Below are positions 14,974-21,388 of a stretch of DNA of 26,722 bases, piece by piece. A program made the position numbers and the translations under genes. This DNA comes from a virus. Lineage: Duplodnaviria > Heunggongvirae > Uroviricota > Caudoviricetes. The DNA lies in IMG/VR virus record IMGVR_UViG_2531839454_000026; one strand, written 5' to 3'. The notes under the pieces were generated by a model. That model worked only from the letters and a program-made list of their open reading frames with translations. It searched no databases and was not told the origin of the DNA. The first letter of the stretch is position 1. Each line of letters begins with the position of its first letter.

Positions 14974-16173
14974 ATGGCTTTTACAAAAATCAGAATCGAT
15001 AATCTGTTTTGCTTTGAAAATAGCATCCTTGACTTAAGCTTCTCCAGACCCCCGATCAACAGCTCACTGGAAGGTGAGTACATTGATGGATTTGAAAAGT
15101 TCTACTTCAAAAAGGTTTGCATCGTTTCTGGTGCTAATGCATCTGGTAAAACATCTCTTGGTCGCGTGATGCTTTCTGTGTTGCGTTTTCTCAGTAGTGG
15201 TGTTTTCAATCCAGAACCGTTAAAAATTACTGACAAAAGAAAACCTGCATATATAGAGGTTGACTTTTTCCAGAGTCATTTAAAATGTTTGTTTAGGGCA
15301 GGTGTCTGGCTTAGGGCTATGGATGAGTCTGTTGTTGTAGAAAAAATTGCAATGGCATCTGTTGATTTAAGAAGCTCGGAATCATGCGCAAAGACGACCA
15401 AAAGACTGGATGCTGTGTGGGATGCGCAAAAGTTTGAATTAAATGGTCAAAATAGATTTTTTTCAACCGAAAACGCTAACTCAAAAGAATTTTCCCAATA
15501 TTTAGAGGGTTTGGACTTTGTTCTTGGTTGGCATTTCATTCTATCTGAAAACCAAGAGAACACGGATAAAATATCACGAATTAAGAAGAATGTGCTTAAT
15601 AGCATATTAAAAACCTTTGACAATACTGTTAAATCTGTCTCAGGACTCACTCTTAAAGATGATGAGGGAAAGGAGGATTTGCAGGGTTATTCAGTAGTCT
15701 TCAATAATGGAGATAGAGTTATTATTGATATGGAAGGTGATATAACAAATAAAGATAGACTGTCTCGTGGTACTTATGAGGCAGTAAAAATATCCCATCT
15801 CCTGTCAGGAGTGCTTGAAGATAAAATAGAAGAGCGAGAGTTCAATTTCCCTTGCAGTGGGGTGTACTTTTTGGATGAGAAAATGGCCTTCACTCATACT
15901 GAATTAGAAAAAATGATGGTCACGCTGATTATATCTAAGCTTTGCAGATATGGTCAATTTATATACACCACACATAATTATGATATCTTGAGCTTAGATC
16001 TGCCTACGCATTCATATACTTTTACTAAAAAAGTAGATGGTGTAACCACTTTTGTTGAAGCTACCACACATCATAAAAAGAATGATCGCAATCTTTTAAA
16101 TAAAGTAAAAAATGACTGTTTTGCAACAATACCTGACGTTTCATTAATCGAAGAGATGCTATTTGAGGATTGA
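14974..16173 (+). CDS. ABC-type (OLD/AriA/AbiLi-like) ATPase, first gene of accessory cassette
   Basis: 399 aa; SMC/RecF-like N-terminus IRIDNLFCFEN; Walker A GANASGKTS; Walker B VYFLDE; H-loop-like TTHNYD; large insertion between Walker A and B; AT-rich codon usage. Confidence 0.8.
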   Translation: MAFTKIRIDNLFCFENSILDLSFSRPPINSSLEGEYIDGFEKFYFKKVCIVSGANASGKTSLGRVMLSVLRFLSSGVFNPEPLKITDKRKPAYIEVDFFQSHLKCLFRAGVWLRAMDESVVVEKIAMASVDLRSSESCAKTTKRLDAVWDAQKFELNGQNRFFSTENANSKEFSQYLEGLDFVLGWHFILSENQENTDKISRIKKNVLNSILKTFDNTVKSVSGLTLKDDEGKEDLQGYSVVFNNGDRVIIDMEGDITNKDRLSRGTYEAVKISHLLSGVLEDKIEEREFNFPCSGVYFLDEKMAFTHTELEKMMVTLIISKLCRYGQFIYTTHNYDILSLDLPTHSYTFTKKVDGVTTFVEATTHHKKNDRNLLNKVKNDCFATIPDVSLIEEMLFED

Positions 16174-16694
16174 TTATGGCAGTTAAGAAATTTGCTATTA
16201 TTCTTGTTGAGGGAGATACGGAAAAAGCATTGTTTCAGGATTTCAAAACATTGCTAGGCTATCCTATTAAGAAAATAGTAATTGCTAATTTATGGAATGT
16301 TAATATAAATAAATACATGCCAGCATTAACCGAAAATAGCGAAATCATAGTGGTTTTTGATACGGATAGGATTGAGAATCTTGATAGATTTAAGAATAAT
16401 CTCAATCTATTAAAGGCGAAAAAACACACAATCCACCTATTTCAACAAACAAGCAATTTTGAGGATGAGCTTGCCAATGCTTGTGGTGTAAGTAATAGAA
16501 AGTTGTATTCTTGTTTTTGCCCAAAGATCATCTCTGCAGATAACTTCAAGAATGAATTCATTGCGCTGCGCAACAGGATGATGAAATTAGATGGACTTGG
16601 ACTAAATAAAACGTTGCTTTGGAGTAGAGGGATTATCCCCCAATTGAGAGATTATAATTTTCATGTTTCCTCTCATGATGATTATTTTTTATAA
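16170..16694 (+). CDS. Small TOPRIM-like putative nuclease (RloB/DUF4276-like), second gene of accessory cassette
   Basis: 174 aa; start overlaps ATPase stop (ATGA); ILVEGDTE (conserved Glu) and VVFDTDR (DxD) about 50 residues apart = TOPRIM metal-binding signature. Confidence 0.7.
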   Translation: MIMAVKKFAIILVEGDTEKALFQDFKTLLGYPIKKIVIANLWNVNINKYMPALTENSEIIVVFDTDRIENLDRFKNNLNLLKAKKHTIHLFQQTSNFEDELANACGVSNRKLYSCFCPKIISADNFKNEFIALRNRMMKLDGLGLNKTLLWSRGIIPQLRDYNFHVSSHDDYFL

Positions 16695-16736
16695 AAATAA
16701 TAGTCCTCATTAAGATAAACATATTTTAAGACACAA

Positions 16737-16755
16737 GACCGCCAGCTAGGCGGCC
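16737..16755. terminator. Candidate bidirectional terminator between the convergent cassette (+) and parMR (-)
   Basis: CCGCC-AGCTA-GGCGG hairpin with an outer G-C pair, flanked by T-rich sequence on both strands. Confidence 0.35.
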
Positions 16756-16824
16756 TTATATCTTTGACGTTCGACTCCTTATTTGTTGATTGTTTTCAGA
16801 ACTGGAAACCTCCCGTGCAAAGTT

Positions 16825-17136
16825 CTAATCGGGAAATAACGCCCGGATATTTCCGGCCATCTGACTGGTTATCTGTGCGGTGGGGGCTGTCTGTAACATG
16901 TGGCGTTCTGCCCTGGTTTGTGTCACTGATAACGCTTCATCGTCAGCCCATGCAGCCAGTCGGTAAGCCTCTGCCGGATTCATTTTCAGAAGTGCCAGCC
17001 CGGCCAGAAAAGCCACGCGTTGGCCGCTTTTGCGGGCTTCTGGTGTAAGGCTGTCCAGCCAGGCGCATGCTTCGCCTTCGTTCTTGACGGCGGCGGGCTT
17101 CAGATAGAAACTTATCCGTCTGGTTGGTATCGTCAT
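16825..17136 (-). CDS. parR: ParR-like centromere-binding adaptor
   Basis: ATG at 17136 with RBS GGAG, 4 nt after parM stop; 103 aa; RRISFYLKP...LDSLTPEARKSGQRVAFLAGLAL resembles R1 ParR (RRTIAFKLNP...LDSIPQGERSRLNRAALTAGLAL, from memory). Confidence 0.7.
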   Translation of the reverse strand: MTIPTRRISFYLKPAAVKNEGEACAWLDSLTPEARKSGQRVAFLAGLALLKMNPAEAYRLAAWADDEALSVTQTRAERHMLQTAPTAQITSQMAGNIRALFPD

Positions 17137-17140
17137 TGGT

Positions 17141-18100
17141 TTACTCCTTGTCCATTGCGTACAAACCATTGACCAGAGCAAACTGTGGCACCCCGTCCGC
17201 GATGAAAGTCGCATTAACTCCGCAGGCTTCGCGGATAGCGGGTGCCACAATCTCCGCCCCTCCACCGACAACCATCACCCGCCCGTAACCCGAAAAACCC
17301 GCCAGCGCGCGGATCACTCGTTGTTTCAGTGTTTCTTCCTTTTCACGAATAACCGCCATCAGGCTGTCGTAATGCGCGTCATTGTGGATGTGCTGGCGCA
17401 GCCAGGCTTCATCATGGCGATGTTCGATAATGGTATTGGCGATGTGGTGACTGGTGCGCATACCGTTAGTGGCCATCACCGACAGTACGGCATCGGCCAT
17501 CAGAGAAACGCCTACGTGTGGATCGCAAAACACCTGGCTGATACCTGCCAGTTGCCCCTGAACCTTTGCCACATCCAGCGTGGTTCCGCCCAAATCCACA
17601 ATCAGCAGGGATTCAAACGGACTCATGTCAGCCAGTGCCTTAAAGCCAGCCGGAATGGATTCAGGCATAACCCGTACGTTACGGATAGTGAATGCTTCGC
17701 CGTTCTGGTACTCCACCGGGCGCATGACGTTCGCTTTTTTGCGGTTGATGTTGGCCATGTCCGGCTGTGCGTTTGTGTCGAAATACTCGCTCAGTGGCAG
17801 GGTGACAACCACATCCACCTCCTGTGGCGTGATGCCTGATTTGACCAGTGCGTGATGAATGGCAATGACATTCACATCACTGTACTGGTATTGCGTGTCG
17901 GTCGTCTGGACAAAGCGATCGCTGACCGGATCAAAACCATAGCGCACGCCATCAAGCATGTAGTTCGCGGGCTGCGTGCCACCGAACGGCGCAGACCATT
18001 CCGACTTGAAGCTGTTCGGGCTGATGGCGTTGCGGCGTTCGCCGTTCTCAGTCCATGCCAGCTTGATGTTGGTGGAGCCGTCGTCGATACAAATTTTCAT
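17141..18100 (-). CDS. parM: ParM/StbA actin-like segregation ATPase
   Basis: 319 aa; phosphate-1 IDDGSTNIKL, phosphate-2 LIVDLGGTTLDV, adenosine motif VMVVGGGAEIV; N-terminus nearly identical in pattern to R1 ParM. Confidence 0.9.
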   Translation of the reverse strand: MKICIDDGSTNIKLAWTENGERRNAISPNSFKSEWSAPFGGTQPANYMLDGVRYGFDPVSDRFVQTTDTQYQYSDVNVIAIHHALVKSGITPQEVDVVVTLPLSEYFDTNAQPDMANINRKKANVMRPVEYQNGEAFTIRNVRVMPESIPAGFKALADMSPFESLLIVDLGGTTLDVAKVQGQLAGISQVFCDPHVGVSLMADAVLSVMATNGMRTSHHIANTIIEHRHDEAWLRQHIHNDAHYDSLMAVIREKEETLKQRVIRALAGFSGYGRVMVVGGGAEIVAPAIREACGVNATFIADGVPQFALVNGLYAMDKE

Positions 18101-18129
18101 GTCGCTTTTCCTTATGTTGATTAATTAAT

Positions 18130-18244
18130 CGTTTACGGGATTCTGAAATCCCGTTTTTGCCTGTTTTGTGCGCGCTTCATATATCGCGGCGCGTTTTTTG
18201 CTCATTTACGGGATTTGTGAATCCCGTTTCTGTCTGTTTTTTGT
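18130..18244. repeat. Two ~40-bp direct repeats, each with a perfect 8-bp-arm palindrome (ACGGGATT-N4-AATCCCGT) and a T-run, flanking a third hairpin; spans A stop and the parM upstream region
   Basis: Palindromes at 18135..18154 and 18208..18227 (73 bp apart); hairpin CGCGC-N13-GCGCG + T6 at 18171..18199. Confidence 0.8.
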
Positions 18245-21002
18245 TTCCACTGGTCAGGCCACCCCGCAGCAGGTATGCTTTGCGGCGGGCGCGTTCAGTG
18301 GTTTCACTGATTCTCTGTGCGTGCTCTGCGTCGCGGATGGCGCGCAGCATGTCAGAAAGCACGGTAACGGGTGTTTTCATGGTGTTCTGGTCTTGCTGAA
18401 GTGTGGATGCCAGGCGTGCGGCGGCTTCAGGGTCTGATGCCCCCAGCTGTTCCAGATAGCTGGCGACCGGGTTATGGCGGATCTCCGTGCTGCTTACGCC
18501 GTGATTACGGCTCAGGCGTTGCCAGAGCTGCGTGATTCGGCTGTCCGGGCGGGTATCCGGTTTGCGTACAATTTCAAATCCCTGCGGTGCAATGATGCTG
18601 CCGTCAACGTACAGACTGCCACCCCGTAACAGGTGCAGCATCTGCTGTTCACCGATATGCAGGCCGAGAGATTCAGCAGACTCCCGCCATTCTTTAGCGA
18701 GTAACTCGTGGTTATCAGGCAAAGGCCGCGGCTGTTTGCGGCTCTGCGTCCAGTTCTGCATTTCATCGCTGCTGTTTTTGGCCTGTTTGTCACGCAGCGA
18801 ACGCATCAGCGCCCGGCGTTCGTGCCGTTTCAGTGAGTGCATCCATTCATTCACTTCAATGCCGTCAGGAAGCTGCGGCCACGGTGCTGGCCGTTCTTCC
18901 GGCTGTTCTGTCCCGTTGTTGTCTGTTTCCTGTACACGGGGACAGTTATTGCCACGAGTCCAAGGGGCGGCAGGGCCGCCCTGAAGGTCAAAACCATTTT
19001 CGCGGGCGCTGTCTTCCGCTTCCGGTTTACGTCTTACCAGCTTCCAGTTATCCGGGTGCGTGCACACGCGGGAAGATTCCCCTATTTGTGGCGACCAGAT
19101 CCCGTAAATCTGTACGCTTTGCTCGCCGTAATCGTTCAGCTCTTCTGCGAGGTCGTAGGCGGTGCGAATCAGGTAATCTTTGCGTGGAACAAGTACGCCA
19201 CCCTGTTTCTCTATGTAGGTGGCAAAACATCCGGCATCAGCGGCAGCAAGAACCGCGTCCATTGCGTCATCCTTCAGCCGTTGCGGGCCTTCCGGGTTGC
19301 GTGCCATCTGGCTGGCAAGGCGACGCAGTTCACGCCACACCTGACGGGAAGGGATACCAAAGAACTGGAACTGGCGGACCCGGTGAAGGCGCGCCCAGCC
19401 GATGGCGCGTTCCACGCTCTCGGCCATTGATTTTCCGGTTTCGTGGTCAACGCGTGGCTTGCCCGTTTTCGGGTCGATGCCATCCACGGCGCGGCTGTCC
19501 AGGTTCTTTCCGATGTAGGTGGCGATGTAGCTGGTTGGCGTGCCTTTTGAGCCGTCTACGTACTCCGCCTTAAAACGCGGAGTTATGTCATCGCCCAGCT
19601 CGTGGCGGTCTTCCTGAATGGCGATATCGCAGACGTGGGACACGATGGTTTCAATCTCGTCCGGGTGTGCAAAGACCATCATATGCCAGTGCACGGTACC
19701 GTCATGGTGAGGCTCCACCGTGCGGATGCCATACCAGCGCAGACCGTCGCGGTTCAGTTTTTTGCGGACCGCCGCAAAAAACGTGTTAACCAGGTAATCG
19801 CTGGAGTCGCGCATGGTGGCCCCGTTCCATTTGGGGTTCGGATGACCGTTCTCCGTTGTTGCGTGGTATTTTGACGGGCAGGTGACAGTCAGAAACACCG
19901 CTCTGTCGCCACGGGCTTCGGCCAGAAGTTCCAGCCCTTTCATGGTGGCCATCATTTCTGCCTTACGGTGGACCGGGTTACTTACTCCCGCGTAATACAC
20001 CGTCTCGAGATCAATCGTGAACCCGTCTTCATTTTCCAGCATGAAACTTTTCAGGAAATCGCGTGTTTTCTCGCGCTGTGCGCGAAATTCACTTAATGCG
20101 TCCTGACTCAGATAGGGCGATGTTTTTCTGGAAACCAGACAGGCAGCGCGGAGTTGTTCCTCTCTCCATTCGCAACGTAAAAGCCACAGTTTGCGTTTCC
20201 ACCATTCCGCACAGGTCAGGCGAAGGATTGCGCCCGGCAGCAGTTCCGTATCCGGTTCGCTCTTGTTCAGGGCTTCGTAATGTGGCGGCATGATGTGCAG
20301 GCGTAATGCGATACGAGCCAGCATCCGGTAAGCCTTCAACATTACATCCATGGTCAGCTCGCCATCTCTGGCACCAAAGCCATCGCAGAGTGTTTCGAAG
20401 GTGCTGCTGAACATCGCCGCGGTCATGGTGGCCAGCGTCTGTATCTGGTGTTTGTTGAGCTGCGGCAGGGAAAGCAAATCGTCCAGGCGTTCGCGCCCGG
20501 CAAGGGAGCGATAACCCGGTGTCAGCCAGCGTCCGTCAGTGCGATCCAGACGTTCGAATATTTTGCGCAGGGTTCCGCGTGCATAGCGTTCCGCCTGCCA
20601 GCTCTTTTTGCCTTTCTGGCGATCGGCTTCCTGTTTTTTGCGCAGGAAAGAGAGGTGACGGCTCAGTGGTTCACGCAGATAAACAGGTAGTGCCTTTAGT
20701 GTGGCAAAGGCACGGGCTACCGGGTCTTGTTCTGTTGCCCGGCGCTTACTGATGATGCTCTGTGCCAGCTTTTCACGCTGTCCGGCTTCCTCAAGGGATG
20801 CCATGAGTTTTTTACCCATGGCGGATTGTGCGAAAAAGGCTTCTTCCTTCGCTTCCTGTTCTTCCAGTGCCCTTTTGTCTGCCTCAAGGTAGTAACGGAT
20901 GGCGCGTTGCAGGTCGGTTTCAGTTTCCTGCCTGCGCTCCGTAAATCTGGCCGGATCAATGGCTGGCCGTGGTTCATTCCAGCTCCATGCAAACTCGCTC
21001 AT
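18177..21002 (-). CDS. A: Replication initiation endonuclease A (rolling-circle, gpA family)
   Basis: VEPHHDGTVHWHMM and YIATYIGKNLD motifs; likely start MSEFAWSWNEP at 21002 (ATGA overlap with upstream ORF), ORF track start 21029. Confidence 0.9.
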   Translation of the reverse strand: MSEFAWSWNEPRPAIDPARFTERRQETETDLQRAIRYYLEADKRALEEQEAKEEAFFAQSAMGKKLMASLEEAGQREKLAQSIISKRRATEQDPVARAFATLKALPVYLREPLSRHLSFLRKKQEADRQKGKKSWQAERYARGTLRKIFERLDRTDGRWLTPGYRSLAGRERLDDLLSLPQLNKHQIQTLATMTAAMFSSTFETLCDGFGARDGELTMDVMLKAYRMLARIALRLHIMPPHYEALNKSEPDTELLPGAILRLTCAEWWKRKLWLLRCEWREEQLRAACLVSRKTSPYLSQDALSEFRAQREKTRDFLKSFMLENEDGFTIDLETVYYAGVSNPVHRKAEMMATMKGLELLAEARGDRAVFLTVTCPSKYHATTENGHPNPKWNGATMRDSSDYLVNTFFAAVRKKLNRDGLRWYGIRTVEPHHDGTVHWHMMVFAHPDEIETIVSHVCDIAIQEDRHELGDDITPRFKAEYVDGSKGTPTSYIATYIGKNLDSRAVDGIDPKTGKPRVDHETGKSMAESVERAIGWARLHRVRQFQFFGIPSRQVWRELRRLASQMARNPEGPQRLKDDAMDAVLAAADAGCFATYIEKQGGVLVPRKDYLIRTAYDLAEELNDYGEQSVQIYGIWSPQIGESSRVCTHPDNWKLVRRKPEAEDSARENGFDLQGGPAAPWTRGNNCPRVQETDNNGTEQPEERPAPWPQLPDGIEVNEWMHSLKRHERRALMRSLRDKQAKNSSDEMQNWTQSRKQPRPLPDNHELLAKEWRESAESLGLHIGEQQMLHLLRGGSLYVDGSIIAPQGFEIVRKPDTRPDSRITQLWQRLSRNHGVSSTEIRHNPVASYLEQLGASDPEAAARLASTLQQDQNTMKTPVTVLSDMLRAIRDAEHAQRISETTERARRKAYLLRGGLTSGNKKQTETGFTNPVNEQKTRRDI

Positions 21003-21388
21003 GGCTGGTATCCCGTCACGCGCTGCCACTCCTGCGAGAAAATGGCGGAAAGGCGGTTAAATTCAGCGGTGTATTCACTCAGCGAGGCACACCCGCCAGC
21101 AGTGCGATGCGCCAGCATTGCCGCGAATACGGAGGCCGGGGAGTCGTAATACGCCAGCAGTGATTCGCCGTGTGGTGTCAGGCAGTGCAACGCCAGCCCG
21201 TGTGGTGTGAAATCCACGCGGTAGCAGTCGTCTACTGTGAAATAAAGGGTGTCCGCATTCTCCGGTTTTGTAGTGCGTGCTCTGTTGTCACGACCACGGA
21301 TGTAAAGATCAAATAATCCCTGAAGAACGGGAGCCAGACGGGTGTCCTGTGTGCGCACCCATCTTGTGAAGTCATGAGCGTCAATCAT
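20999..21388 (-). CDS. Hypothetical early protein
   Basis: 129-aa ORF translationally coupled to A. Confidence 0.5.
   Translation of the reverse strand: MIDAHDFTRWVRTQDTRLAPVLQGLFDLYIRGRDNRARTTKPENADTLYFTVDDCYRVDFTPHGLALHCLTPHGESLLAYYDSPASVFAAMLAHRTAGGCASLSEYTAEFNRLSAIFSQEWQRVTGYQP

Follow-up and report, generated by a model that had tools for sequence, protein, structure and literature searches.

A palindromic two-box repeat upstream of parM as the candidate parC site of a parMR cassette in P88-like prophages

Introduction

What is the function of two palindromic repeats that straddle the stop codon of a phage replication gene and lie just upstream of parM? The DNA in question, referred to here as the window, is a 26,722-nucleotide stretch of a Caudoviricetes virus (IMG/VR record IMGVR_UViG_2531839454_000026). 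A previous reading of its letters alone (the sequence-only reading) had pointed out the repeats and offered three non-exclusive explanations: a parC-like centromere/operator bound by a ParR-like protein, an array of + strand intrinsic terminators that insulates gene A from antisense transcription, or part of a replication origin. In type II partition systems parC sits directly upstream of parM (PMC5016525, PMC2241845). The parC of plasmid R1 consists of two sets of five 11-bp iterons flanking a 39-bp promoter core, and ParR bends this DNA into a U (PMC2241845). Rousset et al. reported that roughly one E. coli P2-like phage in four has a putative partition system at the gpA-gpQ hotspot, and gave no account of its cis site (PMC9122126); the literature that we searched contained no description of that site.

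Results

The parMR cassette and its setting

The window corresponds to an E. coli prophage of the P88-like type (P2 family): its sequence is the same as that of a prophage in strain 504838 and shares 95-98% identity with P88 and further Xuanwuvirus (P2-family) phages. On the minus strand gene A is followed by parM and then by parR (Table 1). Downstream, the opposite strand encodes an AbiL-like defence pair of two genes, followed by the portal and terminase genes. The parMR cassette occupies the gpA-gpQ cargo hotspot of P2-like phages, and the A-parM-parR segment was matched in 1376 of 5426 complete E. coli genomes. The AbiL-like pair (14974-16694, + strand) is convergent with parR and also lies in the A-Q hotspot; its overlapping genes encode a 399-aa AAA_15 ATPase and a 174-aa OLD-like TOPRIM protein and match the defence models AbiLi (9.6e-28) and AbiLii (6e-5). 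Between the convergent parR and AbiL-like genes there is a GC hairpin, CCGCCAGCTAGGCGG (16739-16753), which is likely a bidirectional terminator separating the two cargo modules.

Table 1. Features of the A-parM-parR region, in positions of the 26,722-nucleotide window.
Feature	Position	Strand	Description
Replication gene A (Phage_GPA)	18177..21029	-	Longest ORF; Phage_GPA match at 8e-129
P2 ori nick-site homologue (best match)	18942..18979	-	30/38 identical, E 7e-4
Repeat copy 2, distal from parM	18202..18243	-	A-rich flank and box ACGGGATT-CACA-AATCCCGT
31-bp core separating the repeat blocks	18171..18201	-	A stop codon, short GC inverted repeat, AT-rich GATATAT
Repeat copy 1, proximal to parM	18129..18170	-	A-rich flank and box ACGGGATT-TCAG-AATCCCGT; intergenic
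AT-rich leader	18114..18130	-	12-bp palindrome GATTAATTAATC at 18119-18130; motif ATTAATCAA at 18117-18125
parM, actin-like segregation ATPase, 319 aa	17141..18100	-	Shine-Dalgarno AAGGA at 18109-18113
parR, 103-aa ribbon-helix-helix (RHH) adaptor	16825..17136	-	PF10784 match at 6e-24

ParM matches the Pfam StbA_N domain (1.8e-82) and the ParM C-terminal domain (1e-68), and it matches the solved R1 ParM structures at 1e-92. ParR is the sole DNA-binding protein of the cassette. Its family profile matches the pB171 ParR structure 2JD3 at 4.6e-14; a phmmer search of the PDB with the single ParR sequence gave no match, and the AlphaFold2 monomer model has low confidence (pLDDT 52). By sequence, an N-terminal RHH strand and a C-terminal ParM-binding tail ([KR]N..LF) could both be aligned, and these two parts, TRRISFYLKP and NIRALFPD (as NIRALFP(D/E)), are kept across ParR variants while the middle goes down to 53% identity. 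ParR is a mosaic in several loci (L011, L014, L007, P0029, P0031), with the N-terminal ~60 and the last ~9 residues conserved, residues ~65-94 hypervariable and an overall identity of 53-98%, next to a ParM that stays 94-99% identical.

Two 42-nt repeats with palindromic cores

The ~40-bp direct repeats with perfect palindromic cores described by the sequence-only reading were recovered as a pair of 42-nt copies with 81% identity, and the computed start-to-start spacing of 73 agrees with the 73 bp it had given between the palindromes. Each copy holds a perfect 8+4+8 palindrome, ACGGGATT-N4-AATCCCGT, at 18135-18154 and 18208-18227. The pattern ACGGGATTNNNNAATCCCGT has exactly two matches in the 26.7-kb window even when two mismatches are allowed, against 0.00 expected by chance (none in 100 dinucleotide-preserving shuffles). 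The A stop codon, TGA on the minus strand at 18177-18179, is indeed straddled by the two copies, and copy 2, previously placed in the last ~20 codons of A, lies within the last ~21, where it encodes ...KKQTETGFTNPVNEQKTRRDI*. The box core GGGATT-N4-AATCCC begins 125 nt upstream of the parM ATG in copy 2 and 52 nt upstream in copy 1. The 31-bp core between the copies is the most variable part of the parMR cassette and a possible candidate for a promoter or loop region, by analogy with R1.

As a predicted hairpin each palindrome reaches about -10 kcal/mol (z -2.6 and -3.2 in folding against shuffles), and the T-run reported after each palindrome is present as a T-rich run on the + strand, where both sites pass a simple terminator pattern. 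The third GC hairpin with a T6 run, read between the repeats, fared less well: a short inverted repeat that holds the A stop does exist at 18170-18200, but it is no stabler than shuffled sequence (z -0.31; 65/200 shuffles fold as well). A-tract helical phasing at the repeats is only suggestive (p ~0.08, against 0.003 for R1-like parC). No clear series of 10-11-bp iterons was found at the repeats, nor was any further repeat family in the cassette.

The 12-bp palindrome GATTAATTAATC between box 1 and the parM ribosome-binding site (RBS) shares a GATT-N4-AATC core with the boxes. In some E. coli variants GGTTAATTAACC takes its place, with both sides changed and the symmetry kept, in what looks like one lineage; the site is not palindromic in the Hafnia relative L007.

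Scans of the window and three relatives detected no sigma-70 consensus promoter on either strand. Two promoters read by hand, TTCAGA-N16-ATTAAT and ATGAGC-N16-TATATG, are weak and not conserved, and we claim no promoter from them. The window and the relatives L246 and L248 (see below) share the ATTAATCAA motif that separates box 1 from the RBS. This motif may be a -10 region, in which case box 1 would cover the -35 position; alternatively, the leader may hold a third weak site. A parMR promoter in the TAATTAAT region, as first proposed, is thus possible in view of the conserved ATTAATCAA motif, but it lacks a detectable sigma-70 consensus. Since A has no sense-strand terminator behind it, its transcripts probably continue into parMR as well.

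The parMR cassette, not gene A, carries the repeats

Four observations assign the repeats to the parMR module rather than to gene A. In one locus (L014) a different A lineage stops 540 bp upstream, an unrelated 157-aa ORF comes next, and the same ~145 bp with both boxes then precedes parM. The same two-box ~145 bp follows a 73-aa ORF in a second locus (L179) and occurs in another upstream context in a third (L189), and overall the cassette was found after four different upstream contexts. The point at which these three loci become homologous to the cassette lies 16-20 nt upstream of box 2, at the left end of copy 2. Since the junction coincides with this end, both repeats lie inside the mobile cassette, and sequence comparison places the 5' boundary of the cassette at the left edge of copy 2. 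Conversely, in an E. coli prophage that carries other cargo and no parMR (L016), a near-identical A gene diverges at ~18277 into a different tail, and the palindrome is absent from that prophage. Among the 2.9 million viral contigs of IMG/VR the two-box pattern was found in 93 stretches, all of them (93/93) directly upstream of parM and 36 nt from its start.

The coding capacity of copy 2 appears to be incidental. The poly-A stretch that precedes box 2 (18228-18246) carries single-base indels that shift the gpA frame in many relatives (L217, L157, L021, L093, L187, L170, L023), yielding at least five different A C-terminal tails and stop positions with the DNA unchanged. Frameshifted tails on a retained DNA sequence indicate that conservation acts at the DNA level and that coding for TGFTNPV is incidental; with alternative tails and stops, the last ~20 gpA residues appear dispensable. 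The cassette provides the final ~21 codons and the stop codon of any ORF that precedes it, and the overlap of the repeat with the end of gene A is a by-product of compaction. This also illustrates how cargo cassettes at the hotspot become joined to the preceding ORF and replace its C-terminus. Two other explanations were considered and rejected: a functional A tail peptide (KKQTETGFTNPV...), as frameshift variants replace the tail, and target-site duplications left by cassette insertion, as both copies are at the same (5') end of the cassette.

Box geometry is kept as the hairpins decay

Distant P2-like relatives with parMR between A and Q were found in Hafnia (L007, ParR 73% identical to that of the window), Hafnia sp. 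(L246, ParM 62%) and Plesiomonas (L248, ParM 63%). Their boxes start at -124/-51, -128/-55 and -131/-59 upstream of the ATG, at spacings of 73, 73 and 72, respectively. Exactly two 16-bp GGG-N10-CCC boxes are present in each of the four lineages, and 0/5000 shuffles per region give such a pair. The inner half-site bases drift, from GGGATT/AATCCC in the window to GGGATT/AAACCC and GGGTTC/AATCCC in L246 and GGGACA/AAACCC in L248. The predicted hairpin energy declines from -9.7 kcal/mol (window) to about -7 (L007), -4 (L246) and -3 kcal/mol (L248); stems in the last two relatives are weak (range -3 to -5 kcal/mol), and neither T-runs nor terminator-like sites were found there. The A stop again lies between the two boxes in L248, and an upstream ORF overlaps both boxes in L246. 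In these distant lineages the boxes keep their geometry although the hairpin potential is lost. Because position, spacing and outer triplets are conserved while the stems decay, the pattern across relatives fits protein-binding sites in duplex DNA rather than terminators or structured RNA.

The presumed DNA-reading strand of ParR is RRISFYL in P88-type cassettes and L248 and RRVSFYL in L246; it is the N-terminal strand that is inserted into the major groove in the known ParR structures (review PMC5016525). The RR(I/V)SFYL strand is present wherever GGG-N10-CCC boxes occur, and since boxes of this type always come with it, the association counts as consistency and not as covariation of ParR with its boxes. 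Broader scans with the ParM profile returned only 99-100% identical copies in IMG/VR, which are uninformative for covariation, and, among species-representative genomes, either near-identical cassettes or ~50% plasmid-type loci with unrelated iterons. One candidate relative (L144, 62%) was rejected as a decayed plasmid-type locus. Enterobacterial-type parM loci also appeared in assemblies labelled Vagococcus, Streptomyces, Clostridiales and Lachnospiraceae (L101, L122, L123, L140), which are probably contaminant or mis-binned contigs.

Relatives in Serratia and Enterobacter have a layout different from the two-box type. These loci (L249, 3380-3445; L250, 3383-3450) carry parMR at the same hotspot, a ParR strand NRKISFYL and, upstream, a long inverted repeat GGGAAC...GTTCCC with arms of 14-20 nt that are 26-28 nt apart around a GC palindrome.

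A per-column comparison of 72 distinct sequences does not show clearly lower polymorphism in the box arms than in neighbouring positions within E. coli, and the common box variants GGGACT and AATCCT break the perfect symmetry. Across 122 distinct cassette/ParR combinations the arm substitutions are single transitions with no compensating partner; the strand on which they are G-U compatible differs between the two copies, with too few independent events to favour either strand.

Discussion

Alternative readings: terminators, RNA hairpins and the replication origin

As intrinsic terminators of the + strand, the palindromes would end antisense transcripts, such as read-through from the convergent AbiL-like cargo or the late operons, ahead of gene A; the stable GC-rich stem-loops with U-tracts that this calls for are found on the + strand in the window and in the Hafnia relative L007, and the cargo genes (14974-16694) are indeed convergent with parR, parM and A. 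Those genes end at 16694, however, with the terminator-like hairpin at 16739-16753 as their own, and there is no + strand gene or promoter-like site upstream of the repeats whose transcripts would end at them. The L246 and L248 relatives retain the boxes and their spacing and give 0 terminator calls, so that stem and U-tract are not maintained as the boxes are. Covariation is about zero on both strands (RNAalifold terms +1.3 and -0.2 across five diverged cassettes), the population variants produce G-U pairs on opposite strands for the two copies, and variants of the central hairpin break its + strand pairing. The terminator array proposed from the sequence alone is therefore not borne out, and we regard it as unlikely; the terminator-like shape is, as judged from these comparisons, a resemblance restricted to the P88/L007 clade, where it could have a side role. 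The palindromes might instead work as hairpins in the sense transcript, stabilising the 3' end of the A message or controlling parM translation and mRNA decay from the 5' UTR. The likely co-transcription of A and parM, the position of copy 1, 34-54 nt upstream of the parM ATG, and variants of the central GC stem that keep sense-strand pairing through G-U all speak for such a role. On the other hand, the hexamer arms do not covary but are invariant, the stems of L246 and L248 lose their stability although the boxes stay in position, and there is no obvious reason for an RNA to carry two identical hairpins at a distance of 73 nt; we consider this role very unlikely. A scan of 16500-19500 against Rfam gave only a sub-threshold STnc180 match, located elsewhere than the repeats.

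Two further readings concern DNA rather than RNA. The suggestion that the repeats are part of a rolling-circle origin recognised by gpA drew on P2, whose origin lies in the 3' part of A; the annotated P2 nick site (rep_origin 29892) is indeed inside A, 427 nt before the A stop, and copy 2 is inside the A ORF of the window. The P2 nick region, though, finds its homologue ~750 bp away from the repeats, at 18942-18979 and not at 18130-18244, and colinear protein alignment assigns it to that very spot (P2 residues 612-625 against window residues 682-697). This homologue is likely the replication origin of the prophage. The near-identical A gene without parMR (L016, homologous to ~18277) has no repeats, the repeats also follow ORFs other than A, and the A tail covering copy 2 is variable in frame. 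The origin reading thus fails, and its probability is negligible. The boxes might also be operators and nothing else, at which ParR or another regulator represses parMR, with no segregation through this site or with the centromere elsewhere. Characterised parC sites have many more repeats than the two boxes present here, it is not obvious what a centromere would do in an integrated prophage, and chromosomal ParMR systems with other roles are reported (PMC12270681; CorMR preprint). Against this, operator and centromere are the same DNA in the type II systems studied (PMC2241845, PMC5016525), the conserved ParM-binding tail of ParR and the 94-99% conserved ParM argue for a working filament-adaptor pair, and the cassette shows no second repeat family. 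We give a purely regulatory function a low probability.

A probable variant parC

We favour the view that the two repeats are the cis site (parC, centromere and operator) of a type II ParMRC cassette, bound by ParR; on the comparative evidence this is the probable explanation, and among the readings first offered it is the one that held up. The repeats accompany parMR into different contexts, are confined to the DNA upstream of this parM and have a geometry that outlives their hairpins. Like type II parC sites, they lie directly upstream of a parM-parR operon and are inherited with the cognate parMR as one module. They do not form a tandem array of direct ~10-20-bp iterons in 4-10 copies, being two 42-nt repeats with one palindromic box each, and for that reason we call the site a variant rather than a canonical parC.

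ParR as the binder, its stoichiometry, repression and centromere activity are what we infer from this arrangement. Each 16-bp box GGGATT-N4-AATCCC would bind a pair of ParR RHH dimers: its half-sites are centred ~10-11 bp apart, about one helical turn, which suits two neighbouring RHH dimers on one face of the helix. The 73-bp distance between boxes is ~7 helical turns, so the boxes lie on the same face as well. From the boxes ParR may nucleate a segrosome that is bent or wrapped, perhaps with assistance from the A-rich flanks, and the C-terminal tails (NIRALFPD) of the complex would capture growing ParM filaments. As box 1 is 20-50 nt upstream of the conserved AT-rich ATTAATCAA motif and the RBS, we propose that ParR binding would also autoregulate parMR, presumably by repression.

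The proposed parC resembles the R1/NR1 sites in its position upstream of parM-parR and in its two blocks around a core (5x11+39+5x11 bp in R1, 42+31+42 bp here), and the partners are homologous, with a PF10784 ParR that has the same layout of N-terminal strand and C-terminal tail. It differs from R1 parC in having one 16-20-bp palindromic box and an A-rich flank per block instead of ten direct 11-bp iterons, in having no visible consensus promoter in the core, in overlapping the coding end of the upstream gene and in belonging to an integrated phage rather than a plasmid. The plasmid parC regions that we fetched are likewise split into two blocks, with unrelated iterons. In the pB171 (2JD3) and pSK41 segrosomes an RHH binder also places one dimer on each ~10-bp subsite and neighbours pair (PMC5016525); with 103 aa, against 115-147 aa, the phage ParR is the smaller protein and has a hypervariable middle, and it would bind inverted half-sites rather than a tandem array. 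The plasmid parC family, too, includes inverted subsites: in a candidate parC upstream of parM, an Erwinia plasmid parMR locus (L103, 2925-2980) has inverted iterons, the 13-bp palindrome TCTCAATTTGAGA occurring twice, 40 bp apart.

Analogies outside type II systems are looser. The type Ib RHH binders ParG of TP228 and omega of pSM19035 recognise short direct or inverted subsites upstream of their operon and double as centromere binders and repressors (PMC5016525), but they partner ParA-type ATPases, not an actin-like ParM, and have no sequence relationship to ParR. The AlpAC/alpS system of the Corynebacterium prophage CGP3 combines a prophage-encoded actin-like filament with a DNA-binding adaptor that has specific sites, and it has been implicated in phage DNA replication and transport (PMC4446434, PMC5539076); its proteins and sites are unrelated and the phage is of a different type, which makes it an analogy for function only.

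A cis site for a parMR cassette is in itself unsurprising; what sets this one apart is its unusually small size, its palindromic form and its fusion to a replication gene. A stronger proposition is that an integrative P2-family phage, found in roughly one of every four complete E. coli genomes, has within the 3' end of its replication gene a minimal type II centromere that works, made up of two palindromic ParR boxes 7 helical turns apart; we hold this to be doubtful on balance. If it were true, the host chromosome would bear a live plasmid-type centromere, ParM filaments would separate or position excised or replicating phage circles during induction or a transient plasmid state, and, as a secondary effect, the same palindromes might insulate gene A when present in single-stranded form or as RNA. 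Should ParR assemble on two inverted-repeat boxes, the site would be among the smallest type II centromeres and useful for studies of segrosome nucleation. Narrowing the candidate centromere to ~115 bp with two defined boxes makes the role of ParMRC in an integrating phage experimentally tractable.

The cassette is also encountered outside chromosomes. The 129-kb E. coli plasmid pCREC455-3 (L252, NZ_CP183151.1) contains an entire P88-like prophage, including integrase, A, parM and parR, and a 272-kb Salmonella plasmid (H61, NZ_CP110658.1) encodes a ParM that is 99.7% identical; in these two cases the phage parMR cassette does sit on a plasmid.
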